A DNA stretch of 64,000 bases. Source: Nanobdellota archaeon. GTDB taxonomy: Archaea; Aenigmatarchaeota; Aenigmatarchaeia; QMZP01. Under the pieces are notes generated by a model, which worked only from the letters and a program-made list of their open reading frames with translations, searched no databases and was not told where the DNA came from. Positions 8,871 to 56,528 of this stretch are shown piece after piece (positions within the stretch are counted from its first letter, which is position 1; each line of letters starts with the position of its first letter). The DNA is taken from NCBI GenBank assembly GCA_043814765.1, contig JBDRJQ010000029.1, positions 16,821-80,820 on the forward strand, read 5' to 3'. The translations under genes were made by a program, and so were the position numbers.

Positions 8871-9863
8871 TTAAAATAGATGCTCATTTATAATCTTTGC
8901 AGCGTCGCCTGGCTTGCAAATTATTGCTTCTTTGACGCCTGGAAGCTGTTCAAGGCGGGTTTTTAATTCATCCGCATCCTTGGCCATGCACATGACCTTT
9001 ACATTGGGTCCTGCATCCATTGTGAAGTAGGATTCCAGGTCCTCTTCTCTCCAATCCTGAATCGCATGTAGAATTGACATTGTGGCAGGATTCCAGTATA
9101 TGATAGGAGGTTTTGTTGTTATCATTGTTGCATGCATCTTCAGTGAGTTATGTTCGGCTGTCTGACCAACTGTGGTGAAATCTTTGCTCTTGATTGCTTT
9201 TCTCATTACATTTATGTCATCTCCGACAGTAGCAAGCCACTTGTCATAATACGGACATGTGGCGATTGTCTGTGCCATGCCTGCCCTGCTCTTGACTTTC
9301 TTTTCTTCTGTGCTAACAATTGTTGTAATCATTCTGAAGTCCCAGTAGTCTTTAGGGGCTATCTGTTCACCAAAGCTGTCTGTTCCATCTTCCTTTTCGC
9401 CGCGGTGCCATTCTACAAAACCGCCTTCTATTGAACGTGTCGCGGAGCCGGAGCCTCTTCTCGAAAGAATTGAAAGTTCCTTGTTGTCAAGATTCAAGCC
9501 AACGGCCTTTGAAGCAGCAAGGCTCAGTGCAGCAAAACCAGAAGCTGAAGAAGCCAGGCCAGCTGCTGTTGGAAAGTTGTTCTTGGAAACGACCTTTGCT
9601 TTTTCATTAATTCCGGCCATCTCTCTAACAATACCCAAATGATCAGAAACCTTTTTTATTTCGCTTTCATCAGTAACTTCTTGATCATTGATTACAACAA
9701 TATCTTTTTCATAATTTAGACTGAATTCAACAGTGGTTGTTGTATTTAATCCCTCCAAAGTCATCGAAATGCTACCATTTTGTGGGAGCATTAGTTTACT
9801 ATCACGCTTTCCCCAGTATTTGGTTAAAGCGATGTTAGCATTTGCAACTGCAGTCGCCTTCAT
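8871..9863 (-). CDS. mvaD: Diphosphomevalonate decarboxylase
   Basis: NIALTKYWGKRD, GLASSASGFAAL and SGSATRS are MDD-family motifs. It is co-directional with the MVK and PMK genes. Confidence 0.9.
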   Translation of the reverse strand: MKATAVANANIALTKYWGKRDSKLMLPQNGSISMTLEGLNTTTTVEFSLNYEKDIVVINDQEVTDESEIKKVSDHLGIVREMAGINEKAKVVSKNNFPTAAGLASSASGFAALSLAASKAVGLNLDNKELSILSRRGSGSATRSIEGGFVEWHRGEKEDGTDSFGEQIAPKDYWDFRMITTIVSTEEKKVKSRAGMAQTIATCPYYDKWLATVGDDINVMRKAIKSKDFTTVGQTAEHNSLKMHATMITTKPPIIYWNPATMSILHAIQDWREEDLESYFTMDAGPNVKVMCMAKDADELKTRLEQLPGVKEAIICKPGDAAKIINEHLF

Positions 9864-9917
9864 GAAATCACCTCTAAGTTGAATAATATAGATTTACAAG
9901 AAAGGTTTATAAATGAG

Positions 9918-10051
9918 TGGGAGCACAGGGAGTCGAACCCTGATCTACCGGTATCTCTCTGCCGAAGCACATACCAGATTCCAATCATCCTTGGAAAGTC
10001 ATCGCTCCAGTCAAACTGGAGCCGATAATGATGCCATTACACCATGCTCCC
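9918..10051 (-). tRNA. tRNA-Trp (CCA) with a 63-nt intron at the canonical 37/38 site
   Basis: Hand-folded. Acceptor GGGAGCA/TGCTCCC plus A73. Anticodon stem ATCGG/CCGGT with loop CTCCAG-intron-A. T-arm CAGGG-TTCGACT-CCCTG. The intron is about 9953-10015 and its ACTGGAG pairs with the anticodon loop. No CCA is encoded. Confidence 0.8.
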
Positions 10052-10095: not shown

Positions 10096-10251
10096 GCCTC
10101 GTTAGCTCAGTCGGTAATGTGGTTTTTCCAAAAACCGTGTCGGTAGAGAGCGCAGCGTTGGTAAGAAACCTTTTTCATAAAAGGTTTCATCCAAAAGGAG
10201 TTAACACGTCCAAAAACGCTGAGGTCCCGGGTTCAATTCCCGGACGAGGCT
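10096..10251 (+). tRNA. tRNA-Thr (GGU) with two introns (D-loop about 29 nt, anticodon loop about 52 nt)
   Basis: Acceptor GCCTCGT/ACGAGGC plus U73. The D-arm GCTC...GAGC is interrupted by a GGTTTTTCCAAAAACC hairpin flanked by a GTCGGTA direct repeat. Anticodon stem CAGCG/CGCTG with loop TTGGTA-intron-A. T-arm CCGGG-TTCAATT-CCCGG. The mature length would be 75 nt. Confidence 0.8.
10166..10211 (+). repeat. Copy A of the conserved hairpin + CCAAAAGGAG module (inside the tRNA-Thr anticodon-loop intron)
   Basis: Sequence AAACCTTTTTCATAAAAGGTTTCATCCAAAAGGAGTTAACACGTCC. Confidence 0.8.
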
Positions 10252-12176: not shown

Positions 12177-13484
12177 ATGGAAAAAATAATTGTTGGTAGG
12201 GATCGTGATGATATTAAACGTTACGGCTCTAAGGCTACTATTTTTATAGGTAAGCATATCGTAGGCGAGGGTGAGGAAGCACACCTCACAAACCCTGTAT
12301 ACCTGGATGTTAACAGACCGCATGTTATGCTGATATGTGGTAAAAGGGGTAGTGGTAAATCGTACTCTAGCGGCGTCATAGGAGAGGAGTTCATGGCACT
12401 GCCACCAGATTTGAGAAAAAATCTTTCTGCTCTAATAATAGACACCATGGGAATATACTGGTCTATGAAAAGTCCAAACAGTCAGCAGACTGTTTTATTA
12501 AAAAGATGGGGGCTCAAGCCCAGTGGCATAAATACGAACTTCCTCGTACCAAAACCGTATGTTGAGGAATATGAAACCCTTGGGATGAAATATGATGGTA
12601 CCTTTACATTTACTTGCTCTGAATTAACAGCAACAGATTGGATACTAGCATTTGGTTTTTCTCCTATAGATCCGCATGGAGTGGGCATAGAAAAAGTGAT
12701 TAGTAGAGCCCGCAAAGATTATGAAAACATCTACGGAATAGATGATATAATAAGACTGATAGAGGAAGATGATGAACTGGGGCATGATGTAAAAAATTCT
12801 CTCATGAACAGGTTTTCTCTGGCAAAGGATTGGAACGTTTTTGAAAAGAAGGGCATGGATGTAAATAGCTTCTTTAAGCCTGGCGAATTAACAGTTTTGG
12901 ATGTGTCAAGGTTTTCAGGAGCTTCTACAAGCTGGTCTGTGAGAAACATGCTTGTTGGTCTTTTGTGCAGAAAGATATATCAAAAGAGGTTAGTTTCTAA
13001 AAAGGCAGAAGAGTTTGGTTTAATAACATACCATGAAAAGAAAACAATACCAATGATATGGATTATGATAGATGAAGCTCATCAGTTTTTACCAGATGTG
13101 GGTGAGACTGCGGCATCTTCTGCTCTCCACACCATAGTAAAACAGGGAAGGGAACCAGGCATATCATTGGTTCTGATGACTCAGCGTCCGAATAAGCTGC
13201 ATCCGGATGCATTGGCACAATCTGATATTGTTATATCACACCGCCTTACTGCAGAAGCTGATCTTACAGCTCTTCGCTCTATAATGCAGAGCTACATGTT
13301 AGAAGATATTCAGGATAAAATCAATAATCTTCCACGACAGAAAGGAACTGCTGTTGTTTTAGACGATAATTCAGAGAGGCTTTATTCTATACAGATCAGA
13401 CCAAGAATATCATGGCATGCCGGTGGTTCACCAAGTGTAATAAAAAAGAAGACGTTTTTTGAGGAAGAAGAATTTGATGCTTAA
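12177..13484 (+). CDS. HerA/FtsK-like P-loop ATPase (DUF87/COG0433 type)
   Basis: Walker A GKRGSGKSYS about 55 aa from the N-terminus. Walker B-like IWIMIDEAHQF and TQRP...ISHRL blocks are typical of HerA-like ATPases. Confidence 0.8.
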   Translation: MEKIIVGRDRDDIKRYGSKATIFIGKHIVGEGEEAHLTNPVYLDVNRPHVMLICGKRGSGKSYSSGVIGEEFMALPPDLRKNLSALIIDTMGIYWSMKSPNSQQTVLLKRWGLKPSGINTNFLVPKPYVEEYETLGMKYDGTFTFTCSELTATDWILAFGFSPIDPHGVGIEKVISRARKDYENIYGIDDIIRLIEEDDELGHDVKNSLMNRFSLAKDWNVFEKKGMDVNSFFKPGELTVLDVSRFSGASTSWSVRNMLVGLLCRKIYQKRLVSKKAEEFGLITYHEKKTIPMIWIMIDEAHQFLPDVGETAASSALHTIVKQGREPGISLVLMTQRPNKLHPDALAQSDIVISHRLTAEADLTALRSIMQSYMLEDIQDKINNLPRQKGTAVVLDDNSERLYSIQIRPRISWHAGGSPSVIKKKTFFEEEEFDA

Positions 13485-14722
13485 CGTTTCTTGTCTCTGT
13501 CTCGCTTCCAAAAAAATATTATGAACGGTATCACCAATAGAATTATTATTAACTGTATTAGAAACCAGTTAGTACAGCCACTTAAACATGTTCCACCGCA
13601 ATCAATTCCTTCTTCATTGGAGTTTTGTATTCCATCGGAACAGTGTTCACAATTATCATCAACAACTCCGCTACAATCATCATCCAGTTCATTAAAACAT
13701 GTCTCTTCTTCAGAATAAACAGCATTTATGCAATCTCCCCAGAGCTCGTTCTCACCGCATGTGGATATTCCAAACTCGCAAATGCCTAATTCTGTGTTTG
13801 GTCCGCAGTCTCTTGTTTCTCCGGGAACAAAACAACAATCAGCGTAATCATCAATTATGCCATTACAGTCATCATCAATACCGTTACATGACTCTTGTGT
13901 CGGATCCTGGCCGCCAACGCAAAAGCATGAAGTTTCCTCTACTGATATTGCACCGTATAAATCATCTATTATGTCATTGCAATCATCATCAATTGTGTTG
14001 CAAGCTTCATCTGAGGGATAAACAGCATCTTGACAATCTGTCCATTTTTTGTTTTCGCATTTCATTACCCCCTTTTTGCATGCACCAGTTTCATCATCTG
14101 GTCCGCATGGTTTGGTGGATCCTTCTTTGCATATAACAGCGGCTCCTCCGCCGCCTCCGCCACCGCCGCCTCCGCCTCCGCCAGAGTCACTAGAGCCTCC
14201 GCCGTCGTCGGTGGATTGACCGCAATTAGAATCATCTAGCACGCAGTCGCTCCAATAACCACTAACACAGCTCTTGTAACCGGTGCAATTTACTTCGTTT
14301 ATGATTTCAAAACAACTAATTGGGTCATTGGTTACGTTGCAGTCAAAACAGGACTCAGAACAACAAAACATAGATTCCTCTGGAAGAACGAATTCCGTCA
14401 AGGTATCATTACAAAACTGGTCTGGTCCGCAACCATAATAACCGTCATCATATGAGCAAGTGTAAACACAGTTAGCATCACAAGGGGAGCTTTCATTAAC
14501 ACACTCTGCGATTAAACCACTATATTCTTGACATGGATTATCCACGCTACACTCTGGTATAGTACAAGTATCATTACAGCAGAATTCTCCTGCTATTTGA
14601 TTGCAATCATCATCAATAGAACAGAGGACATTAGCTCCTGTTTCTCCTGTAATAGCAAAAACCTGATTGGCAATAAATAAAACTGAAAATATCATGATTA
14701 GAGAAATCAGCAAAATTCTCAT
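13481..14722 (-). CDS. Cys-rich surface protein with DDDCNG/DDDCDG-type repeats, poly-Gly linker and C-terminal TM anchor
   Basis: It has a signal peptide and about 60 Cys. The linker is GGGSSDSGGGGGGGGGGGGG. Repeats CNGIDDDCNGIIDD, CNTIDDDCNDIIDD and LDDDCSGVVDD follow. The C-terminus is a TM helix plus a KRDRDKKR tail. Confidence 0.85.
   Translation of the reverse strand: MRILLISLIMIFSVLFIANQVFAITGETGANVLCSIDDDCNQIAGEFCCNDTCTIPECSVDNPCQEYSGLIAECVNESSPCDANCVYTCSYDDGYYGCGPDQFCNDTLTEFVLPEESMFCCSESCFDCNVTNDPISCFEIINEVNCTGYKSCVSGYWSDCVLDDSNCGQSTDDGGGSSDSGGGGGGGGGGGGGAAVICKEGSTKPCGPDDETGACKKGVMKCENKKWTDCQDAVYPSDEACNTIDDDCNDIIDDLYGAISVEETSCFCVGGQDPTQESCNGIDDDCNGIIDDYADCCFVPGETRDCGPNTELGICEFGISTCGENELWGDCINAVYSEEETCFNELDDDCSGVVDDNCEHCSDGIQNSNEEGIDCGGTCLSGCTNWFLIQLIIILLVIPFIIFFWKRDRDKKR
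14145..14182. repeat. GC-rich GGN trinucleotide tract encoding poly-Gly
   Basis: The plus-strand sequence cctccgccgcctccgccaccgccgcctccgcctccgcc is a GC island in an AT-rich gene. Confidence 0.9.
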
Positions 14723-21487: not shown

Positions 21488-22576
21488 ATGACAGAAAAAG
21501 AAACTATTGAAAAGCTTTCAAAACTTGGAAACGAGGTATTGAATGATATAAAAAAGGTGAAAAACCCAGACATACAGCTACCAGTAAGAACATTATCTAA
21601 TATTTATTTTGATGAAAAGAGCAGATTGATTAAGCTCGGTGATAAGGTAAGCCATAGAAGCTACATGAATATTGCTCACACAAGAAAATTCATGCAAACG
21701 CTACTTGTTGCAGCAGAGTGCAAGAAGATAATAAATCAAAACGTTTCAACTTCTATCAGGGATTTGTATTATGCTGTAAAGCACACCATTCCTGGCACAA
21801 AAGAAAACACGTTTGAAGAGCAGAGTGAATCAGATCCTATAATAGAGGATATAGAGGCAGCTTTAAACACGTTAAGAGAGATGCTTCATCTTCAAGCAGA
21901 TAGAAAGGGGTATCTCGCAGGAAGTCTTATAATTAATGATACAGGCGATGAAATAGATTGTGGTAAAATGGGTTCATCTGGCTGGGCAATACCATCAAAT
22001 GCTGAAGACAATAGAATAAAGTTTGAAAAATGCGATGCTGATTATGTTTTGATGGTGGAGAAAGACGCCATATGGCAGAGGCTGAATGAGGATAAGTTCT
22101 GGAAAAAACAAAACTGTTTAGTACTAACAGGAAAAGGACAGCCTGCTCGTGGAACAAGAAGATTAGTTAACAGGCTTCACAGAGAACTAAAACTTCCTAT
22201 ATACGTGCTTACTGATGCTGATCCTTGGGGATATTATATTTATTCTGTCTTGAAACAGGGTTCTATTAATCTGTCTTTCCTTTCAGACAGGCTAGGGACA
22301 CCTGAAGCCAAGTTCATCGGTTTGACAACAATAGATGTTGAAGAATTTGAAATACCAAAAACTGTAACAATCAAATTAAACGAAGGTGACAAAAAGAGAA
22401 CAGTAGAAATGATGAACTACGTCTGGTTCAAGCCAAAAGAGTGGCAGGATGAGATGAAGAACATGATGAAGGTTGGTTACAAACTAGAACTTGAGGCTCT
22501 GTCTGCTAAAGGCATCAAGTTCATCAGCGAGAAATATTTACCACAAAAAATAGAGAATAAGGAATTTTTACCATAA
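21488..22576 (+). CDS. top6A: DNA topoisomerase VI subunit A (Spo11-like)
   Basis: IRDLYY (catalytic Tyr region), VLMVEKDAIWQRL and the Toprim block VLTDADPWGYYI. The ATG lies 2 nt after the top6B stop codon. Confidence 0.95.
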   Translation: MTEKETIEKLSKLGNEVLNDIKKVKNPDIQLPVRTLSNIYFDEKSRLIKLGDKVSHRSYMNIAHTRKFMQTLLVAAECKKIINQNVSTSIRDLYYAVKHTIPGTKENTFEEQSESDPIIEDIEAALNTLREMLHLQADRKGYLAGSLIINDTGDEIDCGKMGSSGWAIPSNAEDNRIKFEKCDADYVLMVEKDAIWQRLNEDKFWKKQNCLVLTGKGQPARGTRRLVNRLHRELKLPIYVLTDADPWGYYIYSVLKQGSINLSFLSDRLGTPEAKFIGLTTIDVEEFEIPKTVTIKLNEGDKKRTVEMMNYVWFKPKEWQDEMKNMMKVGYKLELEALSAKGIKFISEKYLPQKIENKEFLP

Positions 22577-22609
22577 ACTTTTAGGAAAAAGTTTAGCTTC
22601 CAGAAAAAC
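22575..22609 (+). repeat. Copy F of the hairpin module, abutting the top6A stop codon
   Basis: In TAAACTTTTAGGAAAAAGTTT-AGCTTCCAGAAAAAC the stop TAA forms the 5' end of the hairpin. The last 13 nt are identical to the 3' end of the tRNA-Ser intron (56381-56393). Confidence 0.6.
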
Positions 22610-25281: not shown

Positions 25282-28200
25282 TCAAATTTTAGAAGTTACT
25301 TCATCATCTGTTAATGGAGGTCCGCCAAAATCTCCTGCAGGTGGTCCTGGCCAGTATGCTGTCCAATCGGCATATTCAGCATATGCGCTTATTCCTGCTC
25401 CAGTAGCCATTGTAGCATATATTGATGCCATCGCAATCCATCCTGCTCCTCCAGTTAGTATTCCAACTGCTAATACTCCGAGTGTTCCTACCGCTACACC
25501 AGTCCATTTTAATCCTGCTTGTCTTGCACCCAGAGGATTTACGCAGTAATTGTATTCTCCTCTTTCAACTGTCTCAAGTTTAGGAGTTATTACTATTGTT
25601 TCTGAAGCACACTTGGGATCTACAGAATAAGTGTCGAATGTACCATCTTCATCAACATCCGTAAGTATGAGCTTATAATCAATATCTCTAATGAAAACCC
25701 CTCCAACTTCATGGAATATGAACGTTATGGTTTCAAAAGAAGAGTCCAGTGGATCTTCTCCAATATCGGAATATATTCTTCCTGCATTCATTTCATCTTC
25801 AAAATCAACATTCTGGATATTGACTTTCATTGGGTCTTCCCTGCCAGGAATTTCTATGCTGAATTCCTTTGTATATATTCCATTATTAATTCTTTCTCCT
25901 TCCGAATTATCTGGATCTATATCAAATGTTGTCAAAAGATCTTCTCTTTTCAGGTTGAATAAATCGCTGATTGTCAGTTGCTGTCCATTGCGATTGCTAC
26001 TTGGAGCGTTTATTTTAATTCCTCCAAAATTTATGCTTTCGAATATTTCATTAATTGAGCATGAAGGAACGTCTGAAGGGCAGGCATCAGTCCCAGCACT
26101 GCCTTCTGTAAATATTTTTGAATTCTCGCATGTCGATGCACCTTCTTCAATTATGCTTTCCCATTTGTTGTTGATGCCGAAAAAATTCACATCTTTGTAA
26201 ACATATGTGTATAGCTGGCAGATTACACACTCATTTTCTTCTGTTCCTGGCACTATCTTATTAATTTCAAGTGTGTCAATCTTGCATGGAGAGACAAGAT
26301 GAAATGGCTTCCTTCTTTCGAAGCTGAATGTATCTGGGTCCCAATATATTATAACCGGTGTTCCTTTCATTTCATCAGGAAGTTTGTAAACAACCTCTTT
26401 ATTGAAAGGCTCTTTGAGAACTATTGAATTCGCATGCTGGTTGTATTTTGCATTATAGCTGTCTACAATAGAAGCTGCCCATGTAGCTCCGCCAACCGTC
26501 AGTCCAACTAAAGCACCAGCAACCGTTCTCTTGCTCAAAACTAACTTTACACCATTGATTCCAATATTAAGAGCCCTCGTCTTAAAGGCATTTATGAGAT
26601 TATCTCTAAGGAATTTTCCTGCGGCATTTTTTAAGGCCATGCCAATTATTTGAGATCTAGTAAGCGATAAACCTTTTAATGCGGCCTTTTCAGCGGCATA
26701 TTTTACTCCAAGATTAGCAACTCCATTTGCTACTGTACCTACAACTTTGCCTATGGGTATTGCCGTAAGAAGAGCCAAACCTGCTGCTAATTTCCAGTTA
26801 GGTTTGTATGTCCAGGTGTCTTGGTCTGCTGGGAACTCCTGCCAATAAATTATGTATTCCGGGTCTCCATATTTTGCTATGAACTTGTCTTGCCATTTGT
26901 TAACCTCTTCAATGGTTTGTGGTAAATATATGTTTTTTATTATGCAAGTATCAAAATTTTCAGGTAAAATAAAAAATGAATTTTGTGTAATTATAGAATT
27001 AGGTGTTCCATAAATCTTAGAAAAGTCTTTTCCGCTGATACTAGTCTTTCCAGAAAACAAACAATTAACATTAGTTGTTTCTGTTGATAAACTTTCTCCT
27101 TGAACACCAAAAAATCTTTCACACCTTTTTGGATAGTTTGGAACTTCGTTCATTAACTCGTCAGCTATTACATTAATATCACCTAAAGTTTCATGCCTGT
27201 AAGTTTCTGATATTCCATTTGAATATTCTATACGTATTTCATGATTTGAAGAAGCATCTAAAGCTAGCACACTAAAAAGCTTTTTAATTCCCTCTTTATA
27301 GTCATTTTTATATGACCATAAAAGGTCTGCTATAGTTGCATAATGAACACCATCAGTTGGGGTATCTAAATCAAATTTGAAATAGGATTTTTTAGGATCT
27401 TCGTCTCCAAATCTTTCATATTTTGTTGCACCTTCGAAAAAATCGTTATTGCATCCAGGACATCGCCATATCCATTCCTTATTCTTTGCATCAAAATAAT
27501 AATATATATCCTTAGTTGCACCCGATACGAAATTATCTTTATCGTCATAGATGAAGTGCGGCATTATTCGTTCACAATTATTATCATCAATATAAAATGG
27601 GTCTGGTAATGTTGTTATATGCATAGGCTCAGCGTCAATTACTGGCAACAAAGCAAGGGTGAAACCTCTCTCTATTTGACTGTTAATACAATTATTGGAA
27701 ACTCCATCCGTATACTGAATATCGGATAAACTTATTATATGATAGTTCGATATGGTATCTACTGTATCCAAAACTCTTACTAAATCCCCTCTTTTTAATT
27801 CACAAAAAACATCATCAAAATTTACTTCGTCGTAAAGATTTCCATCTGTTTCAAAATATATACTGGCTTTTTCTCTTTCATTAGGTCCTGAAGAACCATC
27901 AAGAGTCATTGGTTTAATCACATACCAATATTCTTCTAGCTGTAAATCTATTTTTTCTTCCTTACCAGTAATTTCTTCATCATTTACAGCTGTTGGGGAT
28001 AATAAGAACCCACCTAATATACCAGATAACCCTGATTCATCTTCATTATTCTCTGCAAAATCGTTATTCTCTTTAAGAGCATCCACAACACCTCCACCAA
28101 CAACAACATCTGCACCACATGGAGTATTCATATCACCAGTAACTGTCCATGTCAATGCACAGTGTATGGCTTCTGCAGCTACTGTTGCACTATCGTCGGA

Positions 28201-28437
28201 AAAACCAGTTGTCTTTCCGCACATCTCTGGATATCTCAAACAAAGATCTTGATATAAACCGTATCCTAAAACAACGACGCCTATTATTATTGCTACTACG
28301 ACGATGAATGAAACAACCTGTAGAATAATATCAGCTGCTGGTTTGGTCATTGCCCACTCGGATTGTTTTAAAGGTCTGCGAATGTTTCCTTTAGAAAAAA
28401 CACTATTAGAATTTAAGTTCAATCCGGTAATTCGCAT
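25282..28437 (-). CDS. Large polytopic membrane/surface protein of unknown function (1051 aa)
   Basis: One N-terminal TM helix, central hydrophobic segments around aa 556-680 and Gly/Ala-rich C-terminal TM helices. The two large intervening domains have scattered Cys. No family recognised. Confidence 0.75.
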   Translation of the reverse strand: MRITGLNLNSNSVFSKGNIRRPLKQSEWAMTKPAADIILQVVSFIVVVAIIIGVVVLGYGLYQDLCLRYPEMCGKTTGFSDDSATVAAEAIHCALTWTVTGDMNTPCGADVVVGGGVVDALKENNDFAENNEDESGLSGILGGFLLSPTAVNDEEITGKEEKIDLQLEEYWYVIKPMTLDGSSGPNEREKASIYFETDGNLYDEVNFDDVFCELKRGDLVRVLDTVDTISNYHIISLSDIQYTDGVSNNCINSQIERGFTLALLPVIDAEPMHITTLPDPFYIDDNNCERIMPHFIYDDKDNFVSGATKDIYYYFDAKNKEWIWRCPGCNNDFFEGATKYERFGDEDPKKSYFKFDLDTPTDGVHYATIADLLWSYKNDYKEGIKKLFSVLALDASSNHEIRIEYSNGISETYRHETLGDINVIADELMNEVPNYPKRCERFFGVQGESLSTETTNVNCLFSGKTSISGKDFSKIYGTPNSIITQNSFFILPENFDTCIIKNIYLPQTIEEVNKWQDKFIAKYGDPEYIIYWQEFPADQDTWTYKPNWKLAAGLALLTAIPIGKVVGTVANGVANLGVKYAAEKAALKGLSLTRSQIIGMALKNAAGKFLRDNLINAFKTRALNIGINGVKLVLSKRTVAGALVGLTVGGATWAASIVDSYNAKYNQHANSIVLKEPFNKEVVYKLPDEMKGTPVIIYWDPDTFSFERRKPFHLVSPCKIDTLEINKIVPGTEENECVICQLYTYVYKDVNFFGINNKWESIIEEGASTCENSKIFTEGSAGTDACPSDVPSCSINEIFESINFGGIKINAPSSNRNGQQLTISDLFNLKREDLLTTFDIDPDNSEGERINNGIYTKEFSIEIPGREDPMKVNIQNVDFEDEMNAGRIYSDIGEDPLDSSFETITFIFHEVGGVFIRDIDYKLILTDVDEDGTFDTYSVDPKCASETIVITPKLETVERGEYNYCVNPLGARQAGLKWTGVAVGTLGVLAVGILTGGAGWIAMASIYATMATGAGISAYAEYADWTAYWPGPPAGDFGGPPLTDDEVTSKI

Positions 28438-28491
28438 AATATATTATTGGATTATACTTTATATTAATGCTCTGATAACAGTTAATTAGGT

Positions 28492-28755
28492 ATGTTGTTT
28501 AGCGGTGCAACCATGACAAAGAAGTGGACAAAGGAAGAGAGAAAGGAAAATACCAGATCAAAATTCTATAAGAGAAGAGAGAAGCTCTTGACTGTTTTTT
28601 TCATAGCAATAATCTTCATAGTGTTATTAGCTGCATTATCTTTTGCTATACAGATAACCAATTTTGCTCTGATAGCTCTGCTTGTTTTGCTGTTGATTGT
28701 TTTGGTGCCATTCTCTATTTTTGTAACGGATACAATCTTTTTTGAGACTGAGTAA
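28492..28755 (+). CDS. Small membrane protein (87 aa, 2 TM)
   Basis: A basic N-terminus is followed by two hydrophobic helices. Its stop TAA forms the 5' end of module copy B. Confidence 0.4.
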   Translation: MLFSGATMTKKWTKEERKENTRSKFYKRREKLLTVFFIAIIFIVLLAALSFAIQITNFALIALLVLLLIVLVPFSIFVTDTIFFETE

Positions 28756-28923
28756 ACCTTTTTCAGAAAAGGTCTTATCTCCAATATAATGGAGTAAGAG
28801 ATAATCTCTAACTCAATATGATAGGAGATTATATCTCATCTCAAATCTCAATGAATGAGGGATGGTCTCTGCGCTCATTATAATGTGAGACGCAGATTTA
28901 ATCCAAAAGGAGCTAACGCTTCC
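28754..28923 (+). ncRNA. Copy B: free-standing expanded version of the tRNA-intron module (candidate structured RNA)
   Basis: AAACCTTTTTCAGAAAAGGTCTT is followed by an insert of about 120 nt and then TTAATCCAAAAGGAGCTAACGCTTCC. The insert has several local hairpins (CTCCA/TGGAG, AGAGA/TCTCT, GAGAT/ATCTC, TCTGCG..CGCAGA). The 3' box matches the tRNA-Thr intron sequence AAAGGAGTTAACACGTCC. Confidence 0.4.
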
Positions 28924-28933
28924 TAAATAGAAT

Positions 28934-29914
28934 TTATTGCTGACTGTTTAGGATTATCTTCTTTATTTCAATAGGCTCCTTGTTGCTTGGTTCTCTGATA
29001 GCCTTTCTTAGCATAATAAGTCTTTTCTTTGGTCCTGGAATAGAGCCGTGTAGTAGCATGTAGTCTCCTTTAACTTCGCCGTATTTCAAGAAACCGCCTT
29101 TAGGTGTTATGTCTCCTTTACCAATCTTCAGGACGCGCTTGTTGTATTCTGTTCTTGTTTGGAAACCGAGCTGACCAGGCATTGCAATCTTTCCTGGAAA
29201 CACTCTGCCCTGTCCAACAGAACCTATGTTTCCAATATGCCTTCTCTTTTTTTCGTGCTTTCTTCCGCGGATTGTGACACCGAACCTTTTTACAGGTCCT
29301 TGAAAACCTTTTCCTGTGGTTACTGCTCTAACATCAGTCCACTCGCCTTCCTTGAAGACTTCCTCTGGTTTTATTTCTTTTCCAAGCTTCTCTTTGGCGT
29401 AATTCCACTTGTCTTCTAGCTTGCCGCCAAGATTCAGTTCAAACAACTCTGGTGTCTTTTTGCCAAAAGCATCTCTTGGCTTTGTGCAAACCAGAAGTCT
29501 TAAATTAAAATGATTGCTTATATCGCTGTTCATTTGTTCAATGTCTTTTTTGTTGTCATTTTTTTCTCTTATAGGTGTTTTACGATTCAGGTCTTTGGGT
29601 AATTTTTCAGCCCAGATAGTTTTTGTGTTTTTGAGGCCATAAGCTGTCTTTTTGTAAGTCTTTATTCCGCAAACAATTATTGAAGGGCATTCTAAAACAG
29701 AAACAGCCTCTGTAATATCATGACCGTTTGTCGGTGAGTTTTTACGGTTGTCTGTATAAATTACCTGTACCATTCCTGCCTTGTAGCATGCAAAGTTTAG
29801 TGGCACTGCTTCTGATGAATCAACATTACTCTTAAAGCTACTATATATCCTCTTTGCCCTTTTCTTTGGCCAGTATGCACGAGAACCGGCAACTGGTTTG
29901 TGTCCCTTAGCCAT
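28934..29914 (-). CDS. rpl3: 50S ribosomal protein L3 (uL3)
   Basis: MAKGHKPVAGSRAYWPKKRA N-terminus and GKGFQGPVKRFG block. Confidence 0.95.
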   Translation of the reverse strand: MAKGHKPVAGSRAYWPKKRAKRIYSSFKSNVDSSEAVPLNFACYKAGMVQVIYTDNRKNSPTNGHDITEAVSVLECPSIIVCGIKTYKKTAYGLKNTKTIWAEKLPKDLNRKTPIREKNDNKKDIEQMNSDISNHFNLRLLVCTKPRDAFGKKTPELFELNLGGKLEDKWNYAKEKLGKEIKPEEVFKEGEWTDVRAVTTGKGFQGPVKRFGVTIRGRKHEKKRRHIGNIGSVGQGRVFPGKIAMPGQLGFQTRTEYNKRVLKIGKGDITPKGGFLKYGEVKGDYMLLHGSIPGPKKRLIMLRKAIREPSNKEPIEIKKIILNSQQ

Positions 29915-29947
29915 AATATCTAATTCCCTAATTACATTTAATTTTCT

Positions 29948-30541
29948 TTAAATTCTCCTGCCACGCCTTCCGCCTGGTTTTCTTGTGTGATCATGGGGTA
30001 TTGGTGTAACATCTTCTATATTGCCTATGCGCAATCCTGTACGAACAAGTGCTCTTATGGCAGGCTGTGCACCCTGCCCAGGCATCTTTCTTTTATGCCC
30101 TCCAGGCGCTCTAACCCTTAGATTAACACCCACTATTCCTTTAGTAAGTGCTTCGCTTGCAACTTTCTTCGCAATAAGCATTGCAGGAAATGCTGATCCC
30201 TTGTCTTTGTCTTTTTGTGTAACCATACCACCAGAGCATATTGATATTGTCTCTGCTCCTGTTATGTCTGTTATATGAACTATAGTGTTGTTGTTTGATG
30301 AGTAAATATGAGCCACTCCCCATTTTCCTTCTTTCTTAGGTGGACTAAATCTTTCAGTTCTTCTATCAAACCTTCTTGGTCCATTTTCATTAGAAGTAGT
30401 GTTTTCTTCACTTTTTGATTCTACTTTTGGTTCTGCTTTCTTCTCTTCCTTAGGAATTTCTTTTTTTTCTGCAGGTTTGGATACAGTCTTTTCTAAAGGC
30501 TGATTAGGCTTCTCTTCCTTTTTTGGTATTTTTTCTGCCAT
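29948..30541 (-). CDS. rps11: 30S ribosomal protein S11 (uS11) with a Lys/Glu-rich N-terminal extension of about 65 aa
   Basis: The core [18 protein letters not shown]...PGGRRGRRI is uS11. The N-terminal part is low-complexity KE/P-rich. Confidence 0.95.
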
Positions 30542-30542
30542 A

Positions 30543-31013
30543 TTATTTCCTCATCTTTGAATTTTCTTGAAATGCTATTTTATTCTCCTCTTCAAGAGGA
30601 ACTAAATATGAAGGAAACACTATCCTTCTGTCATCTATAACAATATGACCGTGTGTTATCATCTGTCTTGACTGTTTTGGCGTTTTAGCCAATCCTTTGT
30701 TTTTCAAAATTGTTTGAAGTCTTCTATTAAGAATATCAGTAACTTGTAAAGCAAGAACATTATCAAGATCCTTTGTTCCCTTAACTAGACCCAGCTTGGA
30801 AAGTTTGTCTAAAAGAAGCTTCTCCTTTTCTTCGTTTTTCTCTCCAATTAAAGCTCTTGCTCTCTGACGAAAATTACGCAAAATAGCCTCTGCTGAACGA
30901 AGCTCTTTTTTTCTCTGTAAACCATAAGTGTTCATTAGCGTTCTCTCTTCTTTTATCTGAACCTTGTTCCAAGGCGCTCTTGGTTTCTTGGTTTTCTTTC
31001 TTATCTTTCTCAT
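30543..31013 (-). CDS. rps4: 30S ribosomal protein S4 (uS4)
   Basis: YGLQRKKEL and the S4 domain [33 protein letters not shown]. Confidence 0.95.
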
Positions 31014-31021
31014 ACAAACAC

Positions 31022-31552
31022 CTATTTACTTCTAGCCTTTCTCTTTACACCAACTGCCTTGCCTTTTCTGAATGATCCTCTGGTTCTCTGTCCACGTACA
31101 GTCAATCCAAGACCATGTCTTATGCCTCTATAGCTTCTTATTTTTTTCATCGCGTCAACGTCTGTTCTCTTTCTCATGTCTAGACGTGACACAGAAAGAT
31201 GCTCAGTAACACCTGTTAAAGGATCGTTTTTTCTATTGAAAAGCCAATTTGGTATTCCATATTTCTGAGGATTAATGATAATGTCTTCTAGTTTCTTTAG
31301 TTCTTCTTCGTTTAATAATCCAACCTTTTTGTCAGGATATGGATATTTAGAAACAATGGCATTGCTGAACATGAATGAAATGCCTTTTATTTTTCTTATA
31401 GCAGATTTAACAGGTTTTGTACCATCTAAATTTGTCTCAACTAAACGTATAATTTGTTGTACATCTTCTGCAGGCTTACCCTCTTTCTGAGGATGGGCCT
31501 TTTCCGGAGGTTTTCCCCCAGCTTCAACGGCTTTGTCCTCTGCCATACTCAT
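31022..31552 (-). CDS. rps13: 30S ribosomal protein S13 (uS13)
   Basis: IIRLVETNLDGTKPV...IKGI and SYRGIRHGLGLTVRGQRTR blocks. Confidence 0.95.
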   Translation of the reverse strand: MSMAEDKAVEAGGKPPEKAHPQKEGKPAEDVQQIIRLVETNLDGTKPVKSAIRKIKGISFMFSNAIVSKYPYPDKKVGLLNEEELKKLEDIIINPQKYGIPNWLFNRKNDPLTGVTEHLSVSRLDMRKRTDVDAMKKIRSYRGIRHGLGLTVRGQRTRGSFRKGKAVGVKRKARSK

Positions 31553-31716: not shown

Positions 31717-32508
31717 ATGAAAATTCCTGTGTATGGTTTGGAAGGGAAGGTAACATCTCATATAGATGTTAAAAGATTATTTTCTGAACCTGTGAGGAAG
31801 GATCTGATAAAAAGAGCTGTTTTAGCTGAAAAGTCTATGGAAAGACAGGCATACGGTACAGATCCTATGGCTGGCAAGAGAACTTCTGCGCACTATCATG
31901 GCAGCAGACATTACAAGCATAGTATGATGAATCGCGAGATGGCAAGAATGAAGAGGATTCACGGTTCTGGTTTTTTGAGCATGAGAGCTCGTTTTGTTCC
32001 TCAGGCTGTAAAGGGTAGAAAAGCTCACCCTCCAAAAGCTGAGAAGGTTTGGAAACTGAAAATAAACAAGAAAGAGCATCTGAAAGCTCTAATGTCTGCA
32101 ATAACAGCAAGCTCTGTAAAGGATATTATTGCTGAAAGAGGACACCGAATAGAAGATGTAAAGCATGTTCCCTTAGTATTTGATGATTCCTTTGAGAAAT
32201 TAAAGAAGGTTAAAGAAGTTATAGCAGCATTAGAACACGCAGGTTTAAAGGAAGAGATAGAAAGAGTAAAAGAAAAGAAGATTCGTTCTGGTAAAGGAAC
32301 CATGAGGGGAAGGAAATACAAGAAAAGGAAAGGCCCTATTATAATAGTAAACAATGATGATTTGATAAGCAAGACTGCAAGAAACCTTTCTGGTTTCGAT
32401 GTTGTAGTAGCAAAGAATCTATGTGTTGATTCTCTTGCACCAGGAACAGAACCTGGTCGTTTATGTGTTTGGACAAAATCAGCAATAGAAAGCCTTGATA
32501 AGAGTTAA
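31717..32508 (+). CDS. rpl4: 50S ribosomal protein L4 (uL4)
   Basis: MKIPVYGLEGK N-terminus and SGKGTMRGRKYK block. The start was set at the ATG, although the ORF track begins at an upstream TTG. Confidence 0.9.
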   Translation: MKIPVYGLEGKVTSHIDVKRLFSEPVRKDLIKRAVLAEKSMERQAYGTDPMAGKRTSAHYHGSRHYKHSMMNREMARMKRIHGSGFLSMRARFVPQAVKGRKAHPPKAEKVWKLKINKKEHLKALMSAITASSVKDIIAERGHRIEDVKHVPLVFDDSFEKLKKVKEVIAALEHAGLKEEIERVKEKKIRSGKGTMRGRKYKKRKGPIIIVNNDDLISKTARNLSGFDVVVAKNLCVDSLAPGTEPGRLCVWTKSAIESLDKS

Positions 32509-32576
32509 AAAAGTGCTTTTTCTCTATAAACCTTTTATATATAATTATATTAATTCATCTATTACTATTGATTGAT

Positions 32577-32912
32577 ATGGCTGAAAAGAAGGTTAAAGCA
32601 GTGAAGAAGGAAGTTCCTAAAGAGGAACCTAAAAAAGTTAGTGCTGAAATTACCAATGAATGGGATGTTTTAATATATCCTCATCTAGCAGAAAAATCAA
32701 TGAACATGATAGAACTTGAAAATAAATTAATATTCGTAGTTAAACGCAACGCCAAGAAAAGCCAGATAAAAGAAGCTCTTGAAAAAGGATTTAACATAAA
32801 AGTACTGGAAATAAACACAGAAATAACAAAGAGTGGTGAAAAGAAAGCTTATGCTAAACTGCATCCTGACAGTTCGGCTATTGATATCGCTACCAGGATG
32901 GGAATGATATAA
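32577..32912 (+). CDS. rpl23: 50S ribosomal protein L23 (uL23)
   Basis: LIYPHLAEKSMNMIE..NKLIFVV......K.QIKEALEKGFNIKV is the uL23 pattern. It has a Lys-rich N-terminal extension. Confidence 0.9.
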   Translation: MAEKKVKAVKKEVPKEEPKKVSAEITNEWDVLIYPHLAEKSMNMIELENKLIFVVKRNAKKSQIKEALEKGFNIKVLEINTEITKSGEKKAYAKLHPDSSAIDIATRMGMI

Positions 32913-32940
32913 ACCTTTTGAAAAAAGGTTTAATCCAAAA
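32911..32940 (+). repeat. Copy C of the hairpin module between rpl23 and rpl2
   Basis: In TAAACCTTTTGAAAAAAGGTTTAATCCAAAA the rpl23 stop TAA is part of the hairpin. Confidence 0.6.
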
Positions 32941-32955
32941 CATTATGGTGATAAA

Positions 32956-33624
32956 ATGGGTAAGAGAATAATTGCACAAAGACGTGGAAGAGGTACATCA
33001 ACATACAGGGTACCGGAATATTCGTTTAAACCAAGGATTATATACAAAAACCAAAAAGGCAAGGTTATTGATATTGTTACAGATAGAATACACAATGCTC
33101 CTTTAATTGAAATATTATACGAAGACAAGTCAAAGGGTTACATTGTTGCTCCTGAGGGCATAAAAGTCGGTGATGAAATAAATGACATCGTAAAACCGCT
33201 TTCGAAGATAGAAGAAGGAACTCGGGTATTTGCTATAGAGAGTTATCCAAACTCTGGTCCTAAGTTCTGCAGAACAGCAGGATCATCTGCAGTTGTTGTT
33301 TCAAAGGACAAGAAAAACGTTATAATTGAATTCCCTTCAAAGAAAATCAAAAAACTTAATATTAATTGCAGGGTAACAGTTGGTATACCAGCAGGCGAAG
33401 GCAGAAGAGAAAAGCCTTGGGTCAAGGCCGGTAAGAAATGGATTGCAATGCATAAACGAGGAAAACTATACCCAAGAACTTCAGCAAAGGCAATGAACGC
33501 TGTTGATCATCCTTTCGGTGGTGGTGGAATAGGTAAAGCAAGACCTCCTGTATCAAGAAATGCTCCTCCTGGAAGAAAGGTTGGAACACTGGCTTCGAAG
33601 AGAACGGGTAGGAAAAAGAGGTAA
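32956..33624 (+). CDS. rpl2: 50S ribosomal protein L2 (uL2)
   Basis: [13 protein letters not shown] and HPFGGG...G motifs. Confidence 0.95.
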
Positions 33625-42914: not shown

Positions 42915-43598
42915 GTGGATAAAATCAAAAAAACATTTTTCATTTCAGGAATATTGGTTTTGTTATTCTTTTTTGTAATCGGCAGTGTTTCTGCAGTTCA
43001 GGATGACCTATGCGACACATCCAACCCGGAAGGGTATGGCTGCATGCGCTTTGAATGGATATGCTGGGATGCACCTTTTATTAATATATTCATAGATACA
43101 ACTTGCTATAGCAGTAATCTTAATCCATATAAGTTTCCGTATCCAGATTCAGATTGTGAAGACCTAGAACCTTTTTGGTGTTATAATGATAAGGGAGTAG
43201 CGACGCACCTAGCGCGCATATACGTTGATTGCGCTGATTGTGATGTCATTAAAGGGTGCTGTTACAACATAACAAAACCATATAATCACTTAATTTTAAT
43301 TGGGATTTTAACTGAAGAAGAATGCTATGAAAACGACATATATGATGAATATTACTGGGACAAAGATTGTATGAGGGGGTATAATGATTTTTGGCCACTT
43401 GTTGCTAGGGCTGTTTCACGCTCAGGAGAGCCTGCCGTTTCTCCTGCATCAGGCCGAAGCATGGGACCTTTCATTGATGCGCTTCCGCAGATAAGCGTCA
43501 TCGTCATTGCAGCGCTTGCGTGCTTGTTTGTCTATGTGATGACGGCTGGAAAGTTCATAAAGCGCAGAACCAAAAAGAAGGGTAAAAGGAAGAAGTAA
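42915..43598 (+). CDS. Cys-rich secreted, C-terminally anchored protein (GCCY family, paralog 1)
   Basis: GTG start and a signal peptide ending SVSA/VQDD. It has the IKGCCY...TEEEC motif. The C-terminus is GPFIDALPQ, a TM helix and a KRRTKKKGKRKK tail. Confidence 0.8.
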   Translation: MDKIKKTFFISGILVLLFFFVIGSVSAVQDDLCDTSNPEGYGCMRFEWICWDAPFINIFIDTTCYSSNLNPYKFPYPDSDCEDLEPFWCYNDKGVATHLARIYVDCADCDVIKGCCYNITKPYNHLILIGILTEEECYENDIYDEYYWDKDCMRGYNDFWPLVARAVSRSGEPAVSPASGRSMGPFIDALPQISVIVIAALACLFVYVMTAGKFIKRRTKKKGKRKK

Positions 43599-43654
43599 GT
43601 TTTATTTTTCATCTGGGAAAAGGTAATATATTCGCGCGCACCAATTATTAAGCA

Positions 43655-44518
43655 ATGAAAAATATTCTTTTCGCAGGGATTTTATTCATATTTGCATTTT
43701 CTATAATCGGCAGTGTTTCTGCAGTTCAAGATGACCCGTGCGATACATCCAACCCGGAAGGGTATGGCTGCATGCGCCTTGAGTGGATATGCTGGGATGC
43801 ACCTTTTATTAATATATTTATAGATACAACTTGCTATAGCAGTCGTCTTGGTCCAGACGCGTTGAAAGGTATTGGGCATCCAGATTCAGACTGCAAAAAC
43901 CTAACACCTCTTATGTGTTACAATGATAACGGAGTAGCGACACACCAAGCGCGCATGTATCTTGATTGTGATGATTGCGAAGTCATTAAAGGGTGCTGTT
44001 ACGGCAAAGAGCCAGGATTTTACCCACGTTTTATTGGGTTTACAACTGAAGAAAAATGCAGAGACTTCGGAGAATACTATTCCTGGAGCAAAGATTGCAA
44101 AGGAGCTGACTGCTTTCAATATTCTCTTTGTGAAAGTGATGATGTTATAGTATACGGAGATGAAAATTGCATAAAACATTATGTAAGTTGTTCAGAGATA
44201 GCTGAAGGCGTTGATTCACCACATTGTGAACAAATAACCGGTAATAGTGCAGAATGCCGATGTGATCCAGGTATTTACAAAACAGCTGACAGCGAAGAAA
44301 TAAGAATTGGATTTGATTGTAGAAGGGTTCCTATCTTACGATCTTTGCCGCGGCCCATTTCACCAACATCGGGCTGGGGTGTAGGACCGTTTATTGATGC
44401 GCTTCCGCAGATAAGCATCATCGTCATAGCGGCGCTTGCATGCTTGTTTGTCTATGTTATGACGACTGGAAAGTTTGTAAAGCGTCATACCAAAAGGAAG
44501 GGCAAAAGGAAGAAGTAA
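43655..44518 (+). CDS. Cys-rich secreted, C-terminally anchored protein (GCCY family, paralog 2)
   Basis: It has the same signal peptide and N-terminal domain as ORF 42915, by my count about 95% nt identity between 43706-43844 and 42978-43116. The anchor is also shared. It carries an extra Cys-rich insert of about 60 aa. Confidence 0.8.
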   Translation: MKNILFAGILFIFAFSIIGSVSAVQDDPCDTSNPEGYGCMRLEWICWDAPFINIFIDTTCYSSRLGPDALKGIGHPDSDCKNLTPLMCYNDNGVATHQARMYLDCDDCEVIKGCCYGKEPGFYPRFIGFTTEEKCRDFGEYYSWSKDCKGADCFQYSLCESDDVIVYGDENCIKHYVSCSEIAEGVDSPHCEQITGNSAECRCDPGIYKTADSEEIRIGFDCRRVPILRSLPRPISPTSGWGVGPFIDALPQISIIVIAALACLFVYVMTTGKFVKRHTKRKGKRKK

Positions 44519-44535
44519 AGTTTTAAATGGAAGGT

Positions 44536-51330: not shown

Positions 51331-51331
51331 T

Positions 51332-51522
51332 GCGGGAGTTTCCGAGCGGCCAAAAATTGATGACTTGGATTGTATTCATCAAGTCATCTTTTGGCTATAG
51401 GAGCAGGGCTAAGGACCCTGTAGCTTAGTGCTTTCGCAGGTTCGAAATAAACCTTTTTCAGAAAAGGTTTAATCCAAAAGAAGGCTGAAGCCTTTCGCGG
51501 AACGAGAATCCTGCCTCCCGCA
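51332..51522 (+). tRNA. Type II tRNA, Leu-like (apparent anticodon AAG), with D-loop and T-loop introns
   Basis: Acceptor GCGGGAG/CTCCCGC plus A73. The D-stem TCC/GGA is interrupted by about 44 nt containing the GATGACTTG/CAAGTCATC hairpin. Anticodon arm CAGGG-CTAAGGA-CCCTG. Long variable arm TAGCTTAGTGCTTTC. The T-arm GCAGG-TTCGAA/T-CCTGC is interrupted by about 62 nt (51447-51508). Confidence 0.75.
51449..51494 (+). repeat. Copy D of the hairpin + CCAAAAG module (inside the tRNA-Leu T-loop intron)
   Basis: Sequence AAACCTTTTTCAGAAAAGGTTTAATCCAAAAGAAGGCTGAAGCCTT. Confidence 0.8.
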
Positions 51523-53311: not shown

Positions 53312-53444
53312 AGTATCACAGTGTTATTTAAGAGAAAAGGTTTATATAATGTACACGCTCACGAAACGTTTATTAAATTATCGTCTAATAGGTTTGATAT
53401 GAGTCTGGATATAAATTTAAATAGCGAGGTTTAAAATTATAGAT

Positions 53445-56499: not shown

Positions 56500-56528
56500 T
56501 TTTTATTTCTTATGATTAATTGTACTGT

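Follow-up and report, generated by a model that had tools for sequence, protein, structure and literature searches.

Results

A composite element between a small membrane protein gene and rpl3

We analyzed a noncoding element located at positions 28753 to 28923 of a 64-kb stretch of DNA from a DPANN archaeon (this whole stretch is referred to below as the window, and positions are those of the window unless a related locus is named). The window is AT-rich and gene-dense, and its genes include those for archaeal ribosomal proteins, topoisomerase VI, EF-1α, and the mevalonate pathway. The element occupies the spacer between two convergent genes. The gene on the plus strand (28492 to 28755) encodes a small membrane protein of ~80 amino acids that shows 55 to 63% identity to its counterparts in L013, L017, and L024 (L-numbers and P0004 denote related loci or contigs that were compared with the window), with a conserved COOH-terminus that ends in ETE in all relatives. 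The gene on the minus strand (28934 to 29914) is rpl3, which encodes ribosomal protein L3 (Pfam PF00297) ending in SQQ. This gene pair is conserved in five lineages. The rpl3 product is 100% identical to the NCBI entry “MAG: 50S ribosomal protein L3 [Nanoarchaeota archaeon]” (MAG, metagenome-assembled genome); its next relatives are 75% identical, and more distant ones are labelled Aenigmatarchaeota.

The first description of this interval, referred to here as the original prediction, proposed a candidate novel structured RNA whose two ends reproduce the intron of a tRNA-Thr gene and are split by ~120 nt packed with hairpins, with neither a tRNA body around it nor an open reading frame (ORF) that would explain the insert. 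As a description, this was confirmed, with two refinements given below. The 5′ end of the element (28753 to 28779, TAAACCTTTTTCAGAAAAGGTCTTATC) shows 93% identity to 51448–51474 and 85% identity to 10165–10191, and the 3′ end (28894 to 28927) shows 82% identity over 34 nt to 10182–10215 in the tRNA-Thr intron, the range for intron copies in the window thus being 82 to 93%. The source of these matches is two repeat families of the window, D15 for the 5′ end and D20 for the 3′ end. The 3′ part also contains a 23-nt exact match to a tRNA intron in L006. The pattern AAACYTTTT-N4-AAAAGGTYTNATC gave nine matches at five places in the window, versus 0.03 expected by chance; the matches outnumber the places because the pattern is palindromic and was counted on both strands. 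No tRNA was detected at the element by ARAGORN, whether or not introns were allowed, or by Rfam, and no credible ORF extends across 28753 to 28923.

The two ends together make up one copy of a repeat unit that we designate module A. The left part (28753 to 28772, plus strand) consists of the 5′ arm of a hairpin, H1 (TAAACCTTTT), the loop TCAG, and AAAAGG; it has no mismatches to the module pattern, and the 93% identity given above is to the copy in a tRNA-Leu gene. The right part (28897 to 28923, plus strand) consists of the rest of the 3′ arm of H1 and a linker (TTTAATCCAAAAG), followed by a second hairpin, H2 (GGAGCTAACGCTTCC, 28909 to 28923). The start of the element, at 28753, is one base upstream of that originally given and is the T of the TAA stop codon of the small membrane protein gene, with this stop codon (28753 to 28755) constituting the first three bases of H1. 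The split point falls inside the 3′ arm of H1, between AAAAGG, which extends to 28772, and TTTAATCC, which begins at 28897, and the insert comprises the 124 nt from 28773 to 28896. All of the hairpins originally listed are present in the sequence, and all are found in the minimum free energy fold except GAGAT/ATCTC (28796–28800 with 28804–28808), in place of which the fold uses a long helix between 28801–28809 and 28824–28832.

Orthologous spacers

The spacer between the two genes was compared among the five lineages. It is empty and measures 7 nt in L013 and in the P0004 contig (for the latter as judged from coordinates only), contains an intact compact module A in L017 (69 nt), contains module A with two copies of a second unit, module B, in the window (178 nt), and contains remnants of module A together with module B in the outgroup L024 (227 nt). 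The residual original spacer of the window (28924 to 28933, TAAATAGAAT) corresponds to the 7-nt empty-site spacer AATAAAC of L013. Given that the element in filled spacers lies between the conserved TAA and 7 to 10 nt that match the empty spacer, its borders are precise, and the 7-nt spacer of sister lineages indicates that the element was probably inserted here and can probably be dispensed with. The empty spacers in two of the five lineages weaken the case for a novel structured RNA and speak against a conserved RNA gene. The junctions themselves are ambiguous by 1 to 3 nt, with TAA...TAA possibly surrounding the window element and TCCGA...TCCGA possibly surrounding module B in L030.

A second site of this kind is the stop codon of rpl23. 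Module A is present there in the window, as a free-standing short form (H1 plus AATCCAAAAC; 32910 to 32941, plus strand) positioned exactly between the rpl23 TAA stop and rpl2, and in L024, as the long form. The corresponding sites of L017 and L013, with 15 and 10 nt, respectively, hold no module.

The order of the ribosomal-protein genes in this part of the window (28934 to 31552 and 31717 to 33624) was found to be unusual, with rpl3 following S13-S4-S11 and being set apart from rpl4-rpl23-rpl2. The order also differs among close relatives, rpl23 being followed by rpl3 in L013 and L024 and by rpl2 in the window and L017, which indicates recent rearrangements around module-bearing junctions.

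Structure and distribution of module A

Comparison of 24 copies showed that module A consists of the 10-bp hairpin H1, with the form N-AAACCTTTT / AAAAGGTTT-N′, the linker ATCCAAAAG (also written NATCCAAAAG), and, in the long form, H2, the base of which is fixed (GGAG...CTTCC) and the top of which varies from 14 to 41 nt. H2 formed a hairpin in all 16 copies that were folded, and inverted copies of H2 are present in L012 and L024. The closing pair of H1 occurs in all four Watson-Crick combinations among the 24 copies (GC in 7, TA in ~8, AT in 3, and CG in 4), and further compensatory changes were apparent in L017 (AT to TA) and in L009 and L024 (CCT/AGG to CCC/GGG). H1 is kept paired by covariation. 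The original prediction had proposed that covariation be sought at homologous loci; it is found in H1, but it belongs to the repeat units and not to an RNA specific to this locus.

The window contains six copies of module A, all on one strand. In addition to the element itself and the copy at rpl23, these comprise three copies in tRNA introns, described below, and one degenerate free copy (TAAACTTTTAGGAAAAAGTTTAGCTTCC; 22574 to 22601, plus strand), which was retrieved by a fuzzy search and starts at the TAA stop of the gene for topoisomerase VI subunit A, in a convergent spacer whose flanking genes were assigned with Pfam. A 27-base exact pattern for module A matched 12 further loci in species-representative genomes, with the MAGs concerned carrying the labels of four DPANN phyla (Micrarchaeota, Aenigmatarchaeota, Woesearchaeota, and Nanoarchaeota), as well as one contig of IMG/VR. 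A pattern anchored on H2 matched one contig in a metagenome scan, which was identical to L006. Some of the loci outside the window are in tRNA introns, either at position 37/38 or in the T loop, and others are free-standing, and the long T-loop introns in Aenigmatarchaeota are mosaics of module units. Of 13 free copies, 9 lie in the same orientation as an upstream gene and have H1 beginning exactly at its TAA stop. A search of ~90 kb of relatives retrieved through protein homology, 21 kb of it from L026, revealed no copy of module A. The distribution of the module is therefore patchy.

Part of H1 resembles a promoter. If module A were a promoter or a terminator-promoter cassette that acts at the DNA level, AAAAGG-TTTAAT of the 3′ arm of H1 would correspond to the TFB-recognition element of archaea (BRE) and a TATA box, and its T-rich inverted partner to a terminator. 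The sequence AAAAGGTTTAAT indeed resembles real tRNA promoters in related MAGs, such as CCAAAAGCTTTATAGA located 32 nt before a tRNA in L006 and L018; an ATG is found 24 to 28 nt after TTTAAT in several free copies (at +27 for rpl2, and also in L003 and L019); and the hairpin lies upstream of three genes in the viral contig L019. In the window element, however, TTTAAT (28897) points antisense into the end of rpl3, where there is no gene to drive, and the module also resides inside tRNA introns. The base that follows GGTTT, N in the TATA-like TTTNAT, is often C or G, given that it covaries with the closing base of H1, so that pairing is conserved rather than TATA quality, and the range of H2 lengths means that the spacing from TATA to start is not kept. 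We therefore regard a promoter function as very improbable.

Sequences related to module A were also observed in other arrangements. At 6440 to 6600 of L001, from a Micrarchaeota MAG, two tandem short forms, each after a GCGATGGAATACCAG-like sequence, are located just upstream of an ATG in a small array-like arrangement. The half-site ATAAACCTTT(T/C), which is the 5′ arm of H1 without its partner, occurs in the window at 9900–9915, 32525–32545, and 53335–53350, in each case beside TATA-like sequence and upstream of a gene (8871–9863, 32577–32912, and 52475–53311, respectively); these half-sites may be remnants of H1 or a real promoter-proximal motif. The contig L019 (IMG/VR UViG_3300011335_000688, classed as viral) contains three intergenic H1-like hairpins, at 1303, 2101, and 4899, two of which are followed by TTTACCCAAAAT and a conserved CTACGCAGTG directly before a start codon. 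This arrangement suggests either that a related palindrome is used in promoter regions or that the contig derives from a DPANN host or its virus.

Module B and the probable nested insertion

The 124-nt insert consists of two copies of module B, a unit of ~60 nt with two internal hairpins and an imperfect 10-bp terminal pairing (TCTTGTCTCC/GGAGATGAGA). Copy 1 (28773 to 28833, plus strand; TCTTATCTCC...GGAGATTATA) is a two-hairpin unit that resembles a miniature inverted-repeat transposable element (MITE) and aligns with the module B copies of L024, L009, and L030. Copy 2 (28834 to 28896, minus strand) is antisense and diverged; it reads TCTGCGTCTC...GAGATGAGA on the minus strand, its reverse complement aligns with the other copies, and it contains the TCTGCGCTCA/TGAGACGCAGA hairpin noted in the original prediction. 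Being adjacent and in opposite orientations, the two copies form alternating palindromic units at gene ends.

The insert matched its own reverse complement in an nhmmer search (E = 8.6e-5), and the same program also found relatives of its first half in L024 and, within an unrelated spacer, in L009. A hidden Markov model built from only the copies of L024, L009, and L030 and applied to 312 kb retrieved both window copies, at 28773–28829 on the plus strand (E = 1.8e-4) and at 28870–28834 on the minus strand (E = 1.2e-3), with no other match in the 312 kb. The insert as a whole, searched for with BLAST and by exact matching, had no other copy in the window or in the first 17 loci. A fourth copy of module B was found in the T-loop intron of tRNA-Ser in L030, in reverse orientation and nested within H2 of module A. 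Given that this copy differs in both position within module A and orientation from those of the window, module B enters module A and is not an original part of it, and its occurrence in both orientations and at different entry points indicates that it behaves as a mobile unit at the DNA level. Among the possibilities put forward originally was a nested insertion into a repeat, and this is the one that the data support.

Another of these possibilities was that the tRNA introns were seeded by an ancestral or full-length form such as this element; the short intron modules would then have arisen from it by deletion. In favor of this view, both module ends are present here together with extra sequence, and an expanded form is also found in the outgroup L024. 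The extra sequence, however, is made up of two inverted copies of an unrelated repeat family and is thus a separate element; the compact module is what distant MAGs usually contain, as seen at the 12 loci described above, and occupies the same site in L017; and module B is nested elsewhere in module A, inside H2 and in the other orientation, in L030. The ancestral-form explanation is largely refuted, and we give it almost no credence.

Other candidate explanations of the insert were examined and discarded. An apparent third module (ATGAAT...TTATAATGT), shared with the Aenigmatarchaeota introns L004 and L007, was explained as diverged B-like sequence. Tandem Repeats Finder found nothing to indicate that the element arose as a tandem repeat. 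A small ORF was rejected as well, given that the longest frame within the insert opens with ATG, spans 21 codons, and is not conserved in L024.

Folding of the element and its possible functions

The fold of the element is more stable than that of shuffled sequences on both the plus strand (z = –4.6) and the minus strand (z = –5.0), with none of 200 shuffles being as stable. This strong fold would suit a stand-alone structured noncoding RNA that is expressed from the spacer and is excised or circularized by the tRNA splicing endonuclease and ligase, the orphan intron of the original prediction, as would the sequence that the element has in common with real introns containing a bulge-helix-bulge (BHB) motif. 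In addition, ~60 nt of the insert recurs at this site in L024, the two versions being distinguished by a compensatory change (TATCTC/GAGATA versus TGTCTC/GAGACA), and DPANN endonucleases reportedly accept relaxed BHB motifs (PMC5829648). We searched for such motifs with a scanner written for this analysis, which recovers those of the tRNA-Thr 37/38 and tRNA-Leu 59/60 introns of the window, both of which have an outer helix of 5 bp. Its only matches around 28753/28923 were weak and AT-rich, with 97.6% of shuffled flanks scoring as well, and around the free copies of module A it yielded none above chance. The element is not an intron at this locus, given that there are no exons, the flanks being the stop codons of the small membrane protein gene and of rpl3, and no above-chance BHB. 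Rfam returned no family match here at the gathering threshold, and the matches obtained with E values of up to 10 for 28400 to 29000 were noise (RsaD, with 22 bits compared with a cut-off of 50 bits). The ~60 nt common to L024 belongs to a repeat family that is also present at unrelated loci and in reverse, the element is absent from two of the five orthologous spacers and cut to 69 nt in a third, and no promoter-like signal precedes it, given that it starts at a stop codon. An endonuclease-processed RNA thus finds no support in the sequence and is, in our estimation, improbable. A C/D-box or H/ACA RNA was considered separately and rejected, with a reading of both strands by eye revealing no RUGAUGA/CUGA pair.

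A function of another type would be that of a domesticated cis-acting 3′-end element, a bidirectional terminator or stabilizer for the mRNAs of the small membrane protein gene and rpl3, with module A being a copied transcript-end or intercistronic signal. The location between two convergent genes, the position of H1 directly at a stop codon in 9 of the 13 free copies, the run of four or five T residues in the 5′ arm of H1, the TTTT after H2 on the rpl3 strand, the strong structure on both strands (z of about –5), and the covariation of H1 are all compatible with such a signal, and repetitive extragenic palindromic (REP) sequences and bacterial interspersed mosaic elements (BIMEs) perform such a task in bacteria. 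However, such an element is missing from most convergent gene pairs of the window, whose spacers measure 0 to 50 nt, and in L013 and P0004 a spacer of 7 nt suffices for the same two genes. A terminator would also harm the three tRNA genes that hold module A, and module B occurs in both orientations. We consider this explanation unlikely.

tRNA introns built from module A

In the tRNA-Thr(GGT) gene (Rfam match at 10096 to 10251), the 52-nt intron at 37/38 (10164 to 10215, plus strand) consists of the long form of module A only, and a BHB is present. The tRNA-Leu(AAG) gene (51331 to 51522) contains module A (51447 to 51508, plus strand) in its T-loop (59/60) intron, with the BHB gcaggTTCG[AAA]/CGAG[AAT]cctgc, and the 61-nt intron at 37/38 of the tRNA-Ser(GGA) gene (56299 to 56500) is also module A (56336 to 56396, plus strand). 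After splicing by hand, the sequences were called by ARAGORN as tRNA-Thr(GGT), tRNA-Leu(AAG), and tRNA-Ser(GGA), each gene having two introns. In the central helix of the tRNA-Thr BHB, TTGG of the anticodon loop pairs with CCAA at the end of the module, and the module's own end therefore supplies half of the splice motif.

The closest relative found, L026 (83% identity in the neighboring decarboxylase), has an intronless ortholog of tRNA-Thr(GGT) with the same upstream region, and the window gene differs from it by clean insertions of 31 and 52 nt, the latter being module A only. In L030, whose EF-1α is 91% identical, tRNA-Ser(GGA) lacks the 61-nt A-type intron at 37/38, and an A-derived T-loop intron is common to both genes. 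Each of these comparisons was based on a single comparator, and either difference may reflect gain or loss; in further relatives checked at tRNA-Thr, synteny was not kept.

Several other features of the tRNA genes were noted. The introns are paired as D loop and 37/38 in tRNA-Thr, D loop and T-loop 59/60 in tRNA-Leu, and 37/38 and T loop in tRNA-Ser. The anticodon AAG of spliced tRNA-Leu places A at position 34, which is unusual for archaea. A fourth tRNA gene, at 9917 to 10051 on the minus strand, is probably tRNA-Trp(CCA) and has an intron of ~60 nt with GATGA-like boxes; it was missed by ARAGORN at default settings and by Rfam. Its ortholog in L026 (8898 to 9035) was called as tRNA-Trp with a 65-nt intron, and by analogy with other archaea the intron may hold a C/D-type guide. 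Of the window's four tRNA genes, Rfam at its gathering threshold found only one. The other three were missed by default tRNA finders and Rfam, likely because of their introns, and standard annotation would under-count tRNAs in the source genome. Between tRNA-Trp and tRNA-Thr in L026 lies an ORF for 251 amino acids (9050 to 9805) with a faint match to LAGLIDADG_3; the flanking segment has the opposite orientation in the window, where no counterpart of the ORF exists at that place.

Other features of the window

Very large ORFs are located at 13481–14722 (413 amino acids), 25282–28437 (1051 amino acids), and 57644–63919 (2091 amino acids), with no Pfam match in those scanned. The ORFs for 413 and 2091 amino acids have repeat units of ~38 codons in common (families D1 to D4, D11, and D14), and both contain GGC/GCC-rich runs (D2). 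These very large ORFs probably encode surface proteins. The region from 42946 to 44523 contains two adjacent paralogous ORFs (43044–43598 and 43655–44518) with 83 to 87% DNA identity over ~500 nt (D5 to D7) and no Pfam match.

Discussion

We propose, with a probability of roughly 70%, that the element at 28753 to 28923 is a noncoding mosaic that arose by nested insertion of two families of non-autonomous mobile hairpin repeats and that is dispensable at this locus. We regard it as probably selfish and not as a new RNA gene. The interpretation given in the original prediction is partly supported. This proposal is based on the homology of each part of the element to a repeat family, on the presence or absence of modules at three orthologous sites, on the occurrence of module B in both orientations, on the covariation of H1, and on the lack of a tRNA body, of an above-chance BHB, and of a match to a known RNA family. 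The modules may spread at the DNA level by means of a hairpin-recognizing enzyme encoded elsewhere, for which the closest precedent would be HUH/Y1-type transposases of the IS200/IS605 or REP-RAYT kind. They might persist only where they are harmless, either beside stop codons or in tRNA loops; in the latter, the TCCAA(AA) 3′ end of module A would pair with the loop to form a BHB, and the insert would then be spliced out. Here, it is probably no more than a passenger within the 3′ untranslated ends of two convergent transcripts, and its hairpins and T-runs may incidentally aid 3′-end formation or stability.

Several observations weigh against this proposal. No transposase, integrase, or HUH domain of Pfam was detected among the 50 window ORFs scanned, nor was an autonomous parent found there, and neither module A nor module B is flanked by a clear, consistent target-site duplication. 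Module A is near-invariant across the four phylum labels, which implies either recent horizontal spread or strong functional constraint. In the nine free copies that start at TAA, the T of the stop codon is the covarying closing base of H1, and this abutment could reflect a role in translation or at transcript ends rather than mere target preference. The neighbor-joining tree was nearly star-shaped and did not separate three gains at the spacer from three precise losses. Finally, a comparison of sense and antisense folds of H2 gave a nonsignificant split of 11 versus 5 copies (p = 0.41), and with no strand asymmetry in folding energy a hairpin that acts as RNA is not distinguishable from one that acts as DNA.

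The two modules share features with several known classes of repeat. MITEs are short, noncoding, dispersed, and structured, and nested MITE insertions exist. Like MITEs, the modules are present as several dispersed copies, with filled and empty orthologous sites and with elements inserted into one another, and module B has candidate (imperfect) terminal inverted repeats and occurs in both orientations. In contrast to MITEs, module A has two internal hairpins in place of terminal repeats and, with few exceptions, a sense orientation, and we found here neither a clear target-site duplication nor, among the window ORFs scanned, an autonomous parent. Bacterial REP/BIME elements and pneumococcal BOX elements are extragenic palindromic mosaics that are located at gene ends or between cistrons and are co-transcribed, with conserved ends and variable inner modules. 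The present units likewise form palindromic mosaics of alternating orientation at gene ends, but their host is archaeal, tRNA introns contain them as well, and they are not species-specific, their sequence being conserved across several phyla. In addition, and unlike the situation for REP/BIME, no RAYT-type gene was apparent among the scanned ORFs.

The palindrome-associated transposable elements (PATEs) derived from IS200/IS605 have hairpins 20 to 40 nt inside their ends and insert beside a short fixed sequence without duplicating it. The modules resemble PATEs in having hairpins near both ends, in their apparent insertion next to TAA or AA without duplication, in their precise-looking empty sites, and in the presence of all six window copies on one strand. 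They differ in that H1 is at the very edge of the element and in that the window yielded neither TnpA nor TnpB; few junctions, moreover, underlie the proposed target preference. RNAs of IS200/IS605 elements in archaea are discussed in PMC12558985.

In eukaryotes, introners are transposon-derived spliceosomal introns (PMC11282704). As for introners, the ends of a mobile element together with its target would supply the splice signals, and introns are present or absent between close relatives. Unlike introners, the modules in tRNA genes depend on a protein endonuclease that acts on a BHB, and the formation of an intron by the element is suggested by only two orthologous comparisons. Module A may nevertheless be an archaeal counterpart of introners, one that is probably shared horizontally among DPANN phyla, lands at TAA stops and in the anticodon and T loops of tRNA genes, and forms a ready-made BHB intron through pairing of TCCAA(AA). 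We offer this idea tentatively, at somewhat less than an even chance.

Many tRNA genes are disrupted in DPANN lineages (PMC5829648). For Thermoproteales, a 2010 study, as summarized in PMC4090602, described near-identical introns in different tRNA genes at both canonical and noncanonical positions; according to that summary, this likeness implies recent spread of introns, probably at the DNA level, with the mechanism being left open. The window also shows near-identical intron sequence in different tRNA genes at canonical and noncanonical positions. The present case differs from that of Thermoproteales in that the host belongs to DPANN, the same sequence is also found outside of tRNA genes, beside stop codons, intronless orthologs and empty spacers were seen directly, and a second element is nested in the first. 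Our literature search yielded no description of the motif, of DPANN tRNA-intron repeats of this family, or of MITEs in archaeal tRNA introns, which leaves the transposition of introns in Thermoproteales as the nearest precedent.

If the element is only local junk, its identification removes a false candidate for a novel RNA; the interesting part is the repeat family rather than the element itself. The similarity of Thermoproteales introns (PMC4090602) is, to our knowledge, the only large-scale evidence on the acquisition of archaeal tRNA introns. In the window and its relatives, one unit appears in three roles: as a whole tRNA intron that is missing in the closest relative, as a free intergenic copy at sites that are empty in sister lineages, and as a place at which another mobile unit has settled. 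Intron gain becomes testable in this system through the pairs of filled and empty sites, the defined ends, and the pairing of TCCAA with the loop as a candidate rule. Should module A prove to be a counterpart of introners, the free copy at 28753 to 28923 and the introns of tRNA-Thr, tRNA-Ser, and tRNA-Leu would all stem from a single process that is still under way, and the gain of introns by archaeal tRNA genes would thereby be explained.

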